This document shows, in pieces, positions 20,081 to 33,577 of a DNA stretch of 64,000 nt. The stretch spans positions 35,386-99,385 of the forward strand of contig JAZQXL010000020.1 of NCBI GenBank assembly GCA_045632845.1, given 5' to 3'. Under the pieces are notes generated by a model, which did no database searches, was not told where the DNA came from, and saw only the letters and a list, made by a program, of their open reading frames with translations. Position numbers and translations under genes: made by a program. This DNA comes from Alphaproteobacteria bacterium. GTDB taxonomy: Bacteria; Pseudomonadota; Alphaproteobacteria; CAAHEQ01; UBA3637. Every line of letters starts with the position of its first letter. Within the stretch, counting starts at the first letter, position 1.

Positions 20081-20254
20081 GACTGAGGGTGTTTGGGTTC
20101 GGCCCAACGAATAGTTGGTTCGGTCATGTAGCGTCAGCGAAGTGGACGGCGAAGAATGAGCCGGTCCGAACAAAGTGAGGACGAGGGATTTATCCCGAGC
20201 AATCCAGCCAGCTTTAGGTGAAACAGATAAGTCGCTAGAAATAGCGACTTTTTC
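20081..20254 (+). ncRNA. Candidate structured small RNA: GC-rich ~150-nt segment ending in its own intrinsic terminator (GTCGCTAGAAATAGCGAC plus T-run). Identity unknown
   Basis: local GC well above the neighbourhood, no credible ORF, terminator at the 3' end. Confidence 0.25.
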
Positions 20255-20700
20255 TTTTATTTTCACCGCTTAATCTGGTCCGTGTGCTGTGTTTTTCAAA
20301 AAGCCTGTTTTTCAGCCCTACACGGACTCAAAATTCAAAAAATCCTTTGTTTTCAATGCTTCTGTCTTGGAATGTCAATTTTTCATCCCAGAGATAACTA
20401 AATGTATTCAGACTGAGTTTGGATGAGAAAAAGATATTCCTATAACACGCTTATTGCTACTGCCATCTCGGAGTACCTACCTGCCACCTAGAGGACCTTG
20501 GGAGCCCGACCGGCATATCCCAGCCATCAAAATTAAATGCAACATCGTTAATGGAGTGTTTTTTTTGCAAGAGCCTTTACATGCGAGAGCCAATGAGAGT
20601 CTATACTTGTTCAGTATAATTGTTCATTTCAACCTCTGCCTACGCATATACAGAGGTTAAACACAACAAACCTCTGCCAAAAAAGCAGAGCTCAGTACTT

Positions 20701-20771
20701 CGATTAAGTGACATTGATGTCTGTTAATAAAAAAAACAACCTCGATTTAATCAAAACCGAGGTTAAATCAT
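20701..20771. repeat. Left copy of a ~70-bp imperfect direct repeat flanking the R-M cassette; contains the inverted-repeat core TGACA-ttga-TGTCt
   Basis: cgattaagtgacattgatgtctgttaat...aacctcgatttaatcaaaaccgaggttaaat compared with the right copy. Confidence 0.5.
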
Positions 20772-20782
20772 AAAGCAAATAC

Positions 20783-21196
20783 TTACTTTTTTACTTTTTT
20801 TAATTTTCGTATTCCATAAGTTGCATTTAGAAGAACAACATCTAAATCTACTAAACATTTCCTATATTGTTTAATGCCATCATTGAATTTAGGATTTTTT
20901 ATGTAAAGTTCTTCTAAGTAAGATTGAAAAACATCGTATTTTTCTAAATCTTTTTCGTTCAATAAATACATAAATAAAGATTGATTTTTATTAAACCAAT
21001 CAACAATTTTTTGAATACTTTCTTTATCAAACTTATAAATTATACATGCCTCATCCATTTGATGGGCTAAATCAAATCTCTTTAAGCGTAAATCTTGTTT
21101 AAACTGAGCATGAGCAATCCAGCACTGTATCGCAGTAAACAAAACGATAGCAATAGCACACATCCATTCTGCATTCTGTTGTAAAATTTGCAACAC
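20783..21196 (-). CDS. Hypothetical small membrane protein (one N-terminal TM) at the edge of the R-M cassette
   Basis: ORF with TM segment WMCAIAIVLFTAIQCWIAHA. Confidence 0.4.
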   Translation of the reverse strand: MLQILQQNAEWMCAIAIVLFTAIQCWIAHAQFKQDLRLKRFDLAHQMDEACIIYKFDKESIQKIVDWFNKNQSLFMYLLNEKDLEKYDVFQSYLEELYIKNPKFNDGIKQYRKCLVDLDVVLLNATYGIRKLKKVKK

Positions 21197-31500: not shown

Positions 31501-32189
31501 TCAAAATCACTTTGACCTTTCATTTCCTCTTGTAGTTTATTTTTAAAAATAGCTATTTTTGAATATAAATCTTTGTTTGAAAAAATGAGTTGTTCAAGCG
31601 TATTTAACAAAATTGAAAAACGAGCATCAAGCGTATTAAGCGTTTCCATATGTTCGTTTTGATAAGCCAATAATCCTTCACGAAAAGGAGCACCTTTTGT
31701 TTTAAAATAATTGGTACAATTAAAAGCATTTGTAATCATATCAGATAAATTTCTATTTTGGATATGCAATGGATTATCTGCTATTTTTTCATGATTACTA
31801 ACAGGTCTAACATCTAAGATAAAAACACAACGAACACCATCTTGTTGGATAATACAAGCATCAATACGACCTTGTTTTCCAAAAACCCATTCAACTTGAT
31901 TGTTTAAATTTGCGTGATGTTCTGGATTCCCAATAAACTTTTGCTGAAAAAACTCCGCCCTAGACTCAACATTTTTCAACTCATTAAAACGAGAAATAAA
32001 AGCTTCCAACTCTTGAGGTTTATTTTGAAAAACAGATTGAATTCCTTCATAAGTTTTCTGTCCTTTTGTATTCTCTCCCAACAACAAAGAACGAAACGTC
32101 ATCCCAGGTTTTTGCTCAAAACATGCAGGCAACGGATCATCAATGAAAAAGAAATGAAAACCTCCATTTTTTTGTAAATTAACCATCAT
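28515..32189 (-). CDS. Very large hypothetical protein (1224 aa), mostly alpha-helical, K/E/D-rich, no recognisable catalytic motif; candidate secreted effector
   Basis: uninterrupted 3.7-kb ORF; 4-nt overlap with the upstream 262-aa gene. Confidence 0.5.
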   Translation of the reverse strand: MMVNLQKNGGFHFFFIDDPLPACFEQKPGMTFRSLLLGENTKGQKTYEGIQSVFQNKPQELEAFISRFNELKNVESRAEFFQQKFIGNPEHHANLNNQVEWVFGKQGRIDACIIQQDGVRCVFILDVRPVSNHEKIADNPLHIQNRNLSDMITNAFNCTNYFKTKGAPFREGLLAYQNEHMETLNTLDARFSILLNTLEQLIFSNKDLYSKIAIFKNKLQEEMKGQSDFDTSEFKAYIEKQLTGPDINEYQRELSTKLYRYDDTSEDHLVQENEISKSFSNISNVRGLAVSLFSNLEMMFERENLKEKNVLDSFQILNKIPPEYFYVLSDVYADKPMDDENQTIQKRMTYFISQLSKLQEADGVDLFETFKGVCKDAFEKQALQTSVSYPIKRVSVQGEILPRENLFQELLNIHTNKFTLDYNVDKFSKALMKLIVEPSYDQMVLLVNNESNDQTLEDERTLGYQWIATGDIDETIGKAFQRILKEYPDLKAKVCEKRPFLTPYVDQLVNGKLPNFDEIHTICTLYNLYCTDGLESEFDAATEQLKKLNVHEKAFLEEYLTAVFPKTENYHTVLRFMQGAKSLVENEDAYQKKLELKKKESRAKKKALPVQSDKDIQRQNFIKAFEVFYEDVNDVEKYESFKQSFLSLDKALLARLKKLPGNNPVGVFVRDYLYFKEKEENYPFDLAVDRTVLRVQDEKKDLLTKCVNDFFDNFENKEALELLQQNTTRLSREDVFFMLDAWGENKDKYARQIAFFTAYKNYKSDDFESFLQDKLPSFAKIVADEIKKRIVDFKQCFRALFSDGDETNSDRLTQACLNLRREDFKLLLDDDLVDLSSQELQLLKDVREAKDGKSKNILEDIKRFVLTTKRRVVFQYAFNKLVKEINNKERIDKFLDASMSMEKTDFDVFISTNSNIKIVSDFFKKLKKIKNKKGASSAQRKDFSDAFYVFKDKVSFVRVVNNFLMEPPQEMDLRKLTTAFWDFSSNNPEALEEVFDENKEAYALLFVLSQMKKIKKETGLENFHTGVAEFIEKEGWKIEFFTMMDQYTAQNQPEEIKKVLTAMELHEIDAIIDTHMYKDNLFMQNELKKQQFCKTVEEFCLSVFKDKDLEKKTVSLFSSLVDVDLLDDVLKETEPDHDAHMMIVGAREFFKDSIRSALPDKALENKKIKFILSNADRKGFDKKIKDLLGAADYKDGLLSFILDLKEHNLSPVVVKKMRENIQKT

Positions 32190-32974
32190 CTCCCCCTTGC
32201 ATGCGAATTGTTATATCGTTTTTTATCAACAATAGTATGGGACCTGTTCCCCGCCATTTCAATAAATACCTGCCTACACATTTTTTTCAAAATTGTAAAA
32301 TCATTTTTTGCTCTTTCTTGAGGCGATAATTTAGATTGATAAATCGATTTAACACGATCCATTTTAAATGAAAACATCATTTTTTTTATCGCTTCACGTT
32401 CTTGATCTTCAATTTTGAGATTTAAATTTTTCTCAATATCTAAAATACGTTGTTCTGGATTTTTAAAGAGCGACAGCTCTGTATCTGAACGAACCAAAGC
32501 ACAAGATAAATCACAAATTATTTTAAAAGATTTTTGGTGTTGCACATCTAAACGACTACAAATTTCTTTTTTATATTGATTAAAATCTTCAATCAAAAGA
32601 GAATCTGTATATTTTGCGGACATAAAAACTTGTTTTGCTATATCTTCTTTTGTTAAATGCGTATCAAATGGCTGTTTTAACAGATGATCTGACACTGTTT
32701 TTCGAACAGCGCTTGAAAACTTAGCGCCTCTTTCCGCCAAAGACAAAATACGTTTTTCAATTGCCTCTTTTGATATATTTTTTAAAGGAACATTTGTTAA
32801 GACATCACAAGTTAAAAATAAAATAGCACTAAACACTGAAGGTGTTTCTACAACAAATTCCTTCTTTAATTTATCGTAAAGAAACATTGTCTTTTTCGCA
32901 TTTTTTGCTTTATCTGATAATTTTGCAGATGTGTTTTCTTTTTTTTGAAACGTCATTACAACAATCCTTTTCAT
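32186..32974 (-). CDS. Hypothetical 262-aa protein translationally coupled to the 1224-aa gene
   Basis: ORF; stop/start overlap. Confidence 0.45.
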   Translation of the reverse strand: MKRIVVMTFQKKENTSAKLSDKAKNAKKTMFLYDKLKKEFVVETPSVFSAILFLTCDVLTNVPLKNISKEAIEKRILSLAERGAKFSSAVRKTVSDHLLKQPFDTHLTKEDIAKQVFMSAKYTDSLLIEDFNQYKKEICSRLDVQHQKSFKIICDLSCALVRSDTELSLFKNPEQRILDIEKNLNLKIEDQEREAIKKMMFSFKMDRVKSIYQSKLSPQERAKNDFTILKKMCRQVFIEMAGNRSHTIVDKKRYNNSHARGR

Positions 32975-33079
32975 AGATAATATTTTTATTTTGTAACATA
33001 AAAAGGTTAAATCTTCAAACTATTTTTAACATCAAATAACGCCCCTTTAAAAATCAAAAATAAATCATATATAAAACAC

Positions 33080-33577
33080 ATGAAAATAATCGTAAATGAC
33101 TTAATGCAAAAAAATTATTCTTATTTTTTAACAGAACCAATGGGTGAAAATTTTGATCCTCTCTTCAAACCTGAATTGTCCCCTTTTGAAATGCTAACAC
33201 TTGGTGTATTTGAAGGAAAATACTTAAACGACTGCCAAAAAGAATTCCCTGCTTCTTGGTTTTTAAAAGAAAAATTATCTCCCTTAAAACCAGATATCAA
33301 CTGCAACTATTTTAAAATTAAATCTCGTCAAAGTTTGCAAATTTGGCAACAAAAAGGCTGGATTATTGAACCAGACATTCGAGGCTGGTTTCAATGGTAT
33401 TGTAGGTATTATATGGGTCGCAGAATTCCTGAAATTGATCAAATTCAAATTCATCGATGGCGCCAATTTAAACGTCATAAAGCTCAAATTGAAAAAAATT
33501 GTATCTCTTTTGACTTAAATTGTCGAAAAAAACAACGTCAAGCATTACTTCAATGGGCGTATAATCCTTTCATATAG
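33080..33577 (+). CDS. Hypothetical 165-aa protein, convergent with nrtR
   Basis: ORF; Trp-rich C-terminal half (GWFQWYCRYYMGRR); no family assigned. Confidence 0.4.
   Translation: MKIIVNDLMQKNYSYFLTEPMGENFDPLFKPELSPFEMLTLGVFEGKYLNDCQKEFPASWFLKEKLSPLKPDINCNYFKIKSRQSLQIWQQKGWIIEPDIRGWFQWYCRYYMGRRIPEIDQIQIHRWRQFKRHKAQIEKNCISFDLNCRKKQRQALLQWAYNPFI

Follow-up and report, generated by a model that had tools for sequence, protein, structure and literature searches.

The flagged 13-kb interval (positions 20,081-33,080) of the window, a 64,000-nt stretch of DNA from an uncultured alphaproteobacterium with a GC content of roughly 33%, is a composite of three layers and not one island. These layers are relatively GC-rich, tRNA-linked repeat DNA (19.56-20.45 kb), a strain-specific segment of 5.3 kb (20,266-25,585) that carries a type II restriction-modification (R-M) cassette and an O-acyltransferase gene, and a conserved part of 7.5 kb (25,586-33,080) that encodes a HEPN-motif protein, a deaminase, a GNAT acetyltransferase, and two orphan proteins of 1224 and 262 aa. 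We consider it likely that the interval reflects allelic R-M substitution at a tRNA-linked hotspot, together with inherited lineage-specific DNA on the right. The original prediction had described the gene content correctly (the analysis found R-M genes, an Acyl_transf_3 protein, a CDA-fold deaminase, a GNAT, and two orphans without a Pfam match), and had regarded the interval as a poorly conserved genomic island with atypical composition, possibly devoted to defence or host interaction. All close relatives retrieved are contigs of public metagenomes, apparently of ruminant-gut origin as judged from their sample labels, and the window itself probably comes from a metagenome-assembled genome (MAG).

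The limits of the strain-specific segment were located by comparison with near-conspecific contigs. Contigs L001 and L002 (~95% nucleotide identity) match the window until about 20,263-20,265 and then diverge, and L096, L097, and L098 (~93%) match it from 25,586 (L098 from 25,663) to at least 33,989. Between ~20,265 and 25,586, such contigs (about 93-95% identity) hold unrelated genes. The variable DNA begins about 220 nt past tRNA-Gln(TTG) (19969..20043, + strand; ARAGORN), which anchors the slot. Among the related loci fetched, the ORFs of the segment lack close counterparts: four gave no tblastn match, and the methylase matched only the different Dcm of L096 and L097, at 27%. At its end, L001 encodes an HNH_2 nuclease and the C-terminal portion of a D12 methylase; L096, from the same sample, begins with the N-terminal portion of a D12 methylase and then has a gene for a 334-aa C5 methylase. 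Because of the shared sample and the complementary D12 methylase halves, we read these two as neighbouring contigs of one genome, in which the slot would be occupied by an alternative R-M set of HNH nuclease, Dam-like N6-adenine methylase, and Dcm C5 methylase. In L004, a lipoprotein gene lies directly after tRNA-Gln. No clean empty site was recovered among the contigs compared.

As predicted from its sequence, the cassette in the window is an intact, self-contained type II R-M system with a C5 methylase, a divergently transcribed restriction endonuclease (REase), and two small ORFs. The C5-cytosine DNA methyltransferase gene (21534..22751, - strand; PF00145, 1e-58; TIGR00675, 2e-53; PADLOC MTase_II, 5e-77) shows the highest synonymous-codon divergence in the window, and adjoins the putative REase gene (22815..23918, + strand; PADLOC REase_II PDLC03456, 1e-50, profile positions 1-373 of 387). 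The REase ORF (367/385 aa) opens at a TTG at 22761, and its homologues begin at the ATG at 22815. A 106-aa ORF (21244..21564, - strand) overlaps the 3' end of the methylase gene and belongs to a phage-associated family with no assigned function (phrog_625, E 1e-14), and a 137-aa ORF (20783..21196, - strand), which has the lowest gene GC in the window (0.262), had no match in Pfam, NCBIfam, PADLOC, or PHROGs. The 111 homologues of the REase are patchily distributed, the next best being 72% identical; unlike the 457-aa HEPN-motif protein and NrtR, the REase has no conspecific homologue at 90-97%. A homologous methylase-REase cassette was found in L104/L105, and in L104 the conserved gene pair (75% nucleotide identity) lies about 190 nt downstream of tRNA-Asn. 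The cargo would presumably protect its host against phage and foreign DNA, and the R-M cassette may also act as a selfish addiction module.

Two direct repeats of 65 nt, with weaker similarity out to about 125 nt, bound the cassette. The left copy (20701..20766, + strand; repeats D3, I1, and I2) consists of a palindrome centred on ACATTGATGT and a hairpin, and the right copy (24141..24206, + strand; nhmmer E 2e-17) is 88% identical to positions 20701-20732 over 32 nt at a spacing of 3440 nt; the motif ACATYRATGT occurs in the 64 kb only at the left repeat and at 24,151. Direct repeats of this kind, again a palindrome plus a hairpin, also flank the gene pair of L104. Beyond the right repeat lies the gene for a membrane O-acyltransferase of the Acyl_transf_3 family (24280..25392, - strand; PF01757, 1e-18; phrog_3333 O-acetyltransferase, 4e-21), which belongs to the strain-specific segment and is missing from L096 and L097. 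Alternatively, this gene might have been resident for longer and have been lost from the other strains, in which case it would not be incoming cargo.

The repeat DNA in front of the slot is built from tRNA 3' ends and small structured units. tRNA-Arg(CCG) (19485..19561, + strand; ARAGORN; Rfam tRNA, 64 bits) is followed by about 1.5 tandem units of 146-148 nt (19562..19800, + strand; direct repeats D1 and D2). Each of them combines a terminator hairpin with a GC-rich unit of roughly 100 nt and a second tRNA-Arg 3' part that begins at the T-loop AATC. The number of these units varies, with three in L001 and none in L004 (nhmmer E 4e-28). The predicted duplication of tRNA-Arg was borne out, with its 3' end and terminator repeated (49 nt at 94%, 146 nt apart), as were the GC-rich non-coding DNA (19.5-20.7 kb at 0.39-0.53, GC-rich only relative to about 0.33 for the window) and the bidirectional terminators (18 terminator-like hairpins versus 6.4±2.6 in shuffles, several scoring on both strands). 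A GC-rich unit homologous to that of tRNA-Arg follows tRNA-Gln (20099..20212, + strand; nhmmer E 1e-17, and alignment) and ends in an att-like partial copy of the tRNA-Gln 3' end (AATCCAGCCAGC, 20201-20212). Such a copy lies downstream of the tRNA-Gln gene in the window, L001, and L002, that of L001 being fuller (AATCAAGCCAGCCCAGCCAA). The right junction of L096 bears a copy of the tRNA-Gln 3' end with its terminator, and no clear or convincing att copy was found at the right junction of the window (about 25,560-25,586). The GC-rich units look like relic attachment-site arms. Next comes a 'rep' module of about 200 nt (20205..20409, + strand; nhmmer E 4e-59 in the window) with three hairpins, of which the first is terminator-like and the second has the form GTCCGTGT...ACACGGAC. 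Further copies were found in L099 and L100, nine of them in L100, all in the same orientation and in a repeat/cassette array headed by the same tRNA-Gln, and one copy abuts tRNA-Asn in L104 (E 1e-9).

We propose that the slot just downstream of tRNA-Arg and tRNA-Gln acts as a recombination hotspot, marked by the tRNA 3'-end copies, the small GC-rich units, and the 'rep' module, and that its cargo is swapped between strains; the R-M cassette and O-acyltransferase of the window are replaced elsewhere by another R-M set or a lipoprotein gene. Cassettes are probably exchanged either by site-specific recombination at tRNA-derived or palindromic repeats, catalyzed by a recombinase encoded elsewhere, or by homologous recombination via the conserved flanks. 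No integrase, transposase, or other recombinase was detected among the window ORFs scanned for Pfam domains, and therefore the mechanism of exchange stays a proposal; no tyrosine recombinase is annotated in the 21-kb array of L100 either.

The repeats also allow two other readings. It is possible, yet doubtful, that the locus belongs to an undescribed gene-cassette platform of this lineage, integron- or CIME-like and served by a recombinase in trans, in which a tRNA 3' end is followed by the 'rep' module, and cassettes are bounded by the 65-nt palindrome-plus-hairpin repeats. R-M and other cassettes would then move between the tRNA-Gln and tRNA-Asn sites, L100 would have accreted nine or more units in the same orientation, and the GC-rich mini-units, each flanked by duplicated tRNA 3' ends, would be cargo-less relics. 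A Kobayashi-type 'insertion with long target duplication', which is documented for type I-IV R-M systems (PMC2853133), into a pre-existing intergenic repeat would agree with the 65-nt direct repeats (weaker to about 125 nt) that bound a cassette devoid of mobility genes; the tRNA-derived repeats would then be unrelated relics. However, repeats of the same architecture bound the homologous cassette at tRNA-Asn in L104, which points to repeats that move along with the cassette, or to a dispersed family of repeats that serves as the target, and away from the duplication of a random target. A further event would also be needed to replace the whole 5.3 kb including the acyltransferase, and we regard this insertion as rather unlikely.

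Allelic substitution at the hotspot concerns only the left part of the interval; the DNA from 25,586 to 33,080 is vertically inherited, lineage-specific, and outside the mobile segment. From 25,586 to at least 37,037, the position that L096 reaches, contigs from three independent samples are 93% identical in nucleotide sequence with no rearrangement. Proteins of this part are 87-99% identical to those of the sister strain, and their genes are under purifying selection, with dN/dS of 0.08-0.16, but 0.39 for the 262-aa ORF. The exported deaminase (27190..27780, + strand; PF00383, 1e-16), a CDA-fold protein of the guanine-deaminase-like (NE0047) type, is 99% identical in the sister strain; its HAE and PCMMC (PCxxC) zinc-binding motifs align to PDB 2g84 (1e-21), and its putative export was read directly from an N-terminal signal sequence. 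The GNAT acetyltransferase gene (27865..28386, - strand; PF13302, 1e-15) is a conserved backbone gene, 96% identical in L096 and 90% in L086, where it adjoins the gene for a 165-aa conserved protein of unassigned function. In the window, this latter gene (33080..33577, + strand) starts the conserved NAD-salvage block; it is found in the same position in L086-L095 at about 76% identity. It adjoins the gene for the NAD-salvage regulator NrtR in the window and in L086, and a single gene separates the two in L088 and L092.

The two orphans are neighbouring genes without a Pfam match. The 1224-aa protein (28515..32189, - strand; dN/dS 0.10) is fast-evolving and lineage-restricted, with only 12 clusters among 1.84e9 representatives, six of them full-length (about 1200-1245 aa) and the other six fragments of 74-215 aa. 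The 262-aa partner ORF (32186..32974, - strand) runs 4 nt into the start of the 1224-aa gene and is 87% identical in the sister strain. Homologues of the pair (27-30% identity, and 27-29% for the 262-aa ORF) occupy the same position in L088, L092, and L095.

The 457-aa protein (25663..27036, + strand) is conserved within the species and restricted to the clade, with 11 homologues among 5.8e9 proteins and a dN/dS of 0.16. No Pfam match and no PDB sequence or profile match was found for it. Two Rx4H motifs of the HEPN type (R276-x4-H281 and R414-x4-H419) are invariant in nine sequences, down to 59% identity; PADLOC gave a HEPN match at 1.7e-4, and the best Foldseek PDB matches of its AF2 model (pLDDT 71) were HEPN toxins, although these were weak (E 0.1, probability 0.97, TM 0.5 on the target). 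The protein resembles HEPN RNases such as HepT of MNT-HEPN, but it lacks an MNT partner gene, carries both motifs in one chain of 457 aa that also has an N-terminal alpha/beta part, and is encoded in the clade's core genome, outside the variable slot. At deeper phylogenetic levels, its gene, like the 262/1224-aa pair, is sometimes missing or found elsewhere.

One horizontally acquired island spanning the whole 13 kb, with a function in defence or host interaction, is very improbable and largely refuted. That reading gains something from the adjoining tRNA genes with a duplicated 3' end, the many orphan genes, and the variation of the 457-aa gene and the 262/1224-aa pair in presence or place at the deeper levels. 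Region genes are also lower in GC (0.299 versus 0.341, p=0.0004), and their products are N/K-rich as predicted (0.181 versus 0.135, p=0.0003). Not everything is atypical, however: neither GC3 (0.230 versus 0.242, p=0.16) nor synonymous codon usage (p=0.31) departs from the rest of the window, and both are like those of the genome, the only codon-usage outliers being the methylase and REase genes. No integrase was found in the window ORFs scanned, the right-part genes are colinear among strains and under purifying selection, the 457-aa protein loses identity (96, 85, 72, and 61%) in step with core genes such as NrtR, and relatives keep the 165-aa gene, GNAT, and 262/1224-aa pair in synteny with the NAD operon. 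Low conservation and variable presence among close strains hold for 20,266-25,585 only, where the original prediction agrees with a tRNA-linked, strain-variable, defence-type accessory segment. The 25.6-33.1 kb part is syntenic at the species level, and partly so in distant relatives, with normal codon usage; synteny with normal codon usage is what the original prediction had named as its refutation, and the 20.3-25.6 kb part does not show it. Least credible is a chimeric join at repeats during assembly or binning of the MAG or the comparison contigs. Every compared sequence is a metagenome assembly, the breakpoints sit in repeat-rich DNA, and both L001 and L096 break off within the alternative cassette. 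However, L001 and L002, which come from different samples, are 96% identical beyond the breakpoint; a shared Dcm gene precedes the 457-aa gene in L096 and L097, also from different samples; and the window cassette is internally coherent, with overlapping ORFs and matched flanking repeats.

The slot shares features with several known systems. As in integron arrays, CALINs, and CIME-type elements, L100 contains one- or two-gene units between structured repeats of the same orientation, cassettes lack mobility genes of their own, and one cassette is present at two platforms. This is no more than a resemblance. The L100 array starts at a tRNA gene, neither intI nor attI was found, and the repeats measure about 200 nt ('rep') and 65 nt (the palindromic ones). 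tRNA-linked islands and integrative elements, which use att recombination by tyrosine integrases, likewise have their site at tRNA 3' ends, direct repeats of the tRNA 3' part that begin in the T-loop, strain-specific cargo, and tandem repeat units, whereas the segment in the window is only 5.3 kb, has no integrase gene in or near it, is largely native in composition, and has no recognisable att copy at its right end. Allelic R-M substitution, R-M cassettes with flanking direct repeats, and tRNA-linked R-M units have been documented (Furuta, Abe & Kobayashi 2010, PMC2853133). With those loci, the slot shares conserved flanks, a single chromosomal position filled by unrelated R-M systems according to strain, direct repeats that bound the R-M genes without a transposase, proximity to a tRNA gene, and a patchy REase family. 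Its repeats differ in that they combine a palindrome with a hairpin and turn up again, together with the same cassette, beside a second tRNA gene in another genome; the tRNA-downstream 'rep' module of 200 nt and the GC-rich mini-units of the slot are further differences. This kind of locus is already known, and its repeat architecture is the only unusual aspect.

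The 13-kb region at 20,081-33,080 had been described in the original prediction as a genomic island in which everything between tRNA-Gln and nrtR is atypical, but comparison with relatives divides it into two parts. What it contains is a tRNA-linked hotspot where restriction-modification (R-M) cassettes replace one another, comprising a 5.3-kb slot plus a repeat platform of ~0.7 kb, beside 7.5 kb of inherited genes. Five loci of relatives (L001-L005), which encode an identical Rho protein and share ~95% nucleotide identity, track the window to ~20,265 and then wholly diverge. 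Three loci from three samples (L096-L098), found via a 96% homologue of the 457-aa protein encoded to the right of the slot, are colinear with the window at 93% nucleotide identity; L096 and L097 align from 25,586 onward, L096 as far as 37,037. These left and right limits therefore delimit a strain-specific segment of ~5.3 kb (20,266-25,585), for which the island reading is supported, whereas the DNA from 25,586 onward is shared. When the segment ORFs were searched by tblastn in the related loci then included in the comparison, four had no match and none had a close counterpart, the sole match of the methylase being an unrelated Dcm of L096 and L097 with 27% identity. The last genes of L001 encode an HNH_2 nuclease and, as a C-terminal part, a D12 N6-adenine methylase; L096, which is from the same sample, opens with a gene for the N-terminal part of a D12 methylase and continues with that for a C5 methylase of 334 aa. 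We infer that these two contigs adjoin, giving another R-M set in the slot of the sister strain. A lipoprotein gene follows tRNA-Gln in L004. At the right junction of the alternative cassette in L096, a copy of the tRNA-Gln 3' end and its terminator is present, and homology to the window resumes beyond them, at ~25,560.

In the window, the slot carries genes for a C5 DNA methylase (21,534-22,751), a divergently oriented type II endonuclease (22,815-23,918; PADLOC REase_II, 1e-50), and an Acyl_transf_3 O-acetyltransferase (24,280-25,392). Direct repeats border the R-M cassette on both sides (20,701-20,766 and 24,141-24,206), each consisting of a 26-nt palindrome centred on ACATTGATGT and then a second hairpin; within the 64 kb, the motif ACATYRATGT is confined to these two repeats. 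For the endonuclease, no conspecific homologue at 90-97% identity was found; the next best has 72% identity, and Arcobacter and Microcystis harbour remote relatives. A tblastn search of the endonuclease against plasmids returned no match, and PDB sequence searches with the endonuclease, a 106-aa ORF, a 165-aa ORF, and a profile of the 457-aa protein gave nothing useful. The 72% homologue is encoded in L104, from another genome, where the methylase-endonuclease pair is 75% nucleotide-identical to window 21,534-23,912, lies ~190 nt downstream of tRNA-Asn, and is likewise bounded by palindrome-plus-hairpin direct repeats, with centres ACATCGATGT and ACATCAATGT. That the same cassette, with repeats of its own, occurs at two tRNA-linked sites argues for its being a mobile unit. 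The palindrome centre itself is CG in one of the four copies, the remaining ones having TG or CA (window 20,711-20,720 and 24,151-24,160; L104 6623-6632 and 9210-9219), which is the pattern expected from deamination of 5-methylcytosine at CpG, and hence, speculatively, the target of the C5 methylase might lie within the palindrome.

The slot sits on a platform of repeats linked to two tRNA genes. After tRNA-Arg, there are ~1.5 tandem units of 146-148 nt in the window, three in L001, and none in L004, and one homologous unit follows tRNA-Gln. Each unit consists of a terminator hairpin, ~100 nt of GC-rich sequence, and a second copy of the tRNA 3' part from the T-loop AATC. Judged by their appearance, the units may be cargo-less relics of integration at att sites. 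The GC-rich units (window 19,589-19,798 and 20,099-20,204; L001 11,417-11,814; L100 17,500-17,634) resemble the 5' acceptor strand of the tRNA at their 5' end, and their RNA fold closes with a ~13-bp stem; either relic attP arms or a small element that targets tRNAs could account for them. A search of the GC-rich non-coding DNA against Rfam at E<1 returned only tRNAs, extra copies of the unit were found neither elsewhere in the window nor in more than 100 fetched loci, and tblastx of 20,400-20,800 gave no sign of a pseudogene, for example a degraded integrase gene.

A structured module of ~200 nt, named rep, comes next at 20,205-20,409. In L100 (GCA_017559525.1), a relative whose 457-aa protein is 72% identical to that of the window, nine rep copies in the same orientation come after a tRNA-Gln, each beginning with CCAGCCAA, the last bases of the tRNA, and separating one- or two-gene units, the 457-aa homologue among them. 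This array lies at 476-20,261 of contig JAFYRI010000011.1 (L099 is the same locus), and its units encode a YaaC-domain protein, S41 peptidases, a MORN-repeat protein, a DUF805 protein, and a TcdA/TcdB-like glycosyltransferase, as well as the 457-aa homologue. In L104, a rep homologue abuts tRNA-Asn. Taken together, these arrangements point to site-specific recombination at cores derived from tRNAs. Scanning of the window ORFs revealed neither an integrase nor a transposase, and the recombination mechanism is therefore one that we only infer.

The rival reading, that the whole 13 kb is one island, drew on features several of which are present. All of the genes listed in the original prediction exist, the non-coding stretch at 19.5-20.7 kb has a relatively high GC content, there is an excess of hairpin terminators, which often score on both strands, and the region's products are richer in N and K, with genes of lower GC. 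The atypicality does not extend further: GC3 and synonymous codon usage match those of the rest of the window, the methylase and endonuclease genes being the sole outliers. It is therefore in amino-acid content that the region differs in composition, as lineage-specific proteins under weak constraint typically do when the genome is AT-rich, and this is not a foreign mutational signature. As a lesson for the annotation of metagenome-assembled genomes, GC content and N/K-richness alone had mislabelled inherited lineage-specific genes as foreign, whereas GC3, codon usage, and strain comparison told inherited from variable DNA.

The genes at 25,586-33,080 are old, fast-evolving, and lineage-specific, and lie outside the mobile segment. 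Compared with the sister strain, protein identity and dN/dS were 95.6% and 0.16 for the 457-aa HEPN-like protein, 99% and 0.10 for the deaminase, 96% and 0.08 for the GNAT, 92% and 0.10 for the 1224-aa protein, and 87% and 0.39 for the 262-aa protein, with dN/dS of 0.00-0.17 in the flanking housekeeping genes. A role of these genes in host or environment interaction is possible. The 457-aa protein has two invariant Rx4H motifs and, in modelled comparisons, weak fold matches to HEPN toxins; only 11 homologues were found among 5.8e9 proteins, all in this clade, and their identity gradient parallels that of core genes, with more distant relatives carrying the gene in other contexts. The deaminase (27,190-27,780) has a CDA fold and an N-terminal signal sequence. 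It was considered as a polymorphic toxin and rejected, as its nearest solved relative is of the small-molecule guanine-deaminase type (PDB 2g84, the Nitrosomonas NE0047 guanine deaminase) and it is 99% conserved between strains. A second CDA-fold deaminase, cytoplasmic, of 141 aa, and distinct from the exported one, is encoded at 39,879-40,304 (-) next to a SPOUT methyltransferase gene, a pair that also occurs in L093. The 1224-aa and 262-aa proteins have no family match; the former, queried as residues 1-1190, fell into a family of only 12 clusters among 1.84e9 representatives, six full-length (~1200-1245 aa) and six fragments (74-215 aa). Recent import of this gene pair is countered by its synteny in distant relatives (L088, L092, and L095), where it occupies the same position beside a conserved 165-aa gene at 27-30% identity. 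In L086, the pair is missing and the GNAT gene (90% identical) directly adjoins the 165-aa gene. Comparison of window 28,515-32,974 with L086 5936-7237 implies lineage-specific loss of a 4.5-kb block, as the relative whose NrtR is closest (84%) lacks the pair and more distant ones (75%) have it at the same position. The 165-aa protein (33,080-33,577, +) is ~76% conserved and without family match; its gene adjoins that of NrtR in the window and L086 and is one gene off in L088 and L092-L095, and it may belong to the NAD-salvage regulon.

The left flank comprises housekeeping genes for three mTERF-domain proteins, a SpoU methyltransferase, IleRS, two succinyl-CoA ligase subunits, and Rho, followed by tRNA-Arg and tRNA-Gln, and the right flank is the NrtR-PncA-NMNAT-PncB-NadE salvage operon. 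The three mTERF-domain (PF02536) genes, in tandem at 8142-11,300 (-), belong to a eukaryote-type family that is unusual in bacteria, and are N/K-rich and relatively fast-evolving (dN/dS 0.08-0.18). An F420_ligase-domain (PF01996) gene (37,891-39,069, -) is found beside the salvage operon in every relative, several of which carry it in duplicate (L086 311-1540 and 9571-10,773), and some relatives carry near the operon a PnuC-type NMN transporter gene that the window lacks. A T2SSE-family (type II/IV secretion) ATPase fragment at the window start (72-740, +), a MORN_2-repeat protein gene (56,258-57,394, -), and VirB4 encoded in the relative L102 are hints that the lineage has a type IV secretion system and repeat proteins of a eukaryote-like kind. 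The chromosomal replication origin is probably inside the window, as dnaA (58,402-59,889, +) lies at the minimum of the cumulative GC skew, which changes sign there (~58-61 kb). The window has a GC content of ~33% and a two-piece, alpha-type tmRNA, and it comes from a poorly known alphaproteobacterium, probably of the ruminant gut. A scan of genome contigs with its Rho gave, among the matches listed, only distant Alphaproteobacteria, at no more than 75% identity to GTDB species representatives, and no close genome. Close relatives are known only as metagenome contigs; they were reached via homologues, since NrtR, PncB, the 1224-aa protein, and P0121 had no exact protein match. Sample labels (TONG22, XIEF21, LIUQ22) suggest a ruminant gut origin of the relatives, Xie 2021 being a paper on ruminant metagenome-assembled genomes.

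What had been flagged as a 13-kb island is reduced to a clearly bounded defence slot of 5.3 kb, of a kind that has precedents. The layout of L100, with gene units between repeats, is like that of an integron, but no integrase domain occurs among the annotated genes of that 21-kb locus. Only the rep/palindrome architecture might turn out to be new. Published cases (PMC2853133) include R-M systems that substitute for one another allelically, R-M units with direct repeats on either side, among them those of the 'long target duplication' type, and R-M units integrated at tRNA genes.
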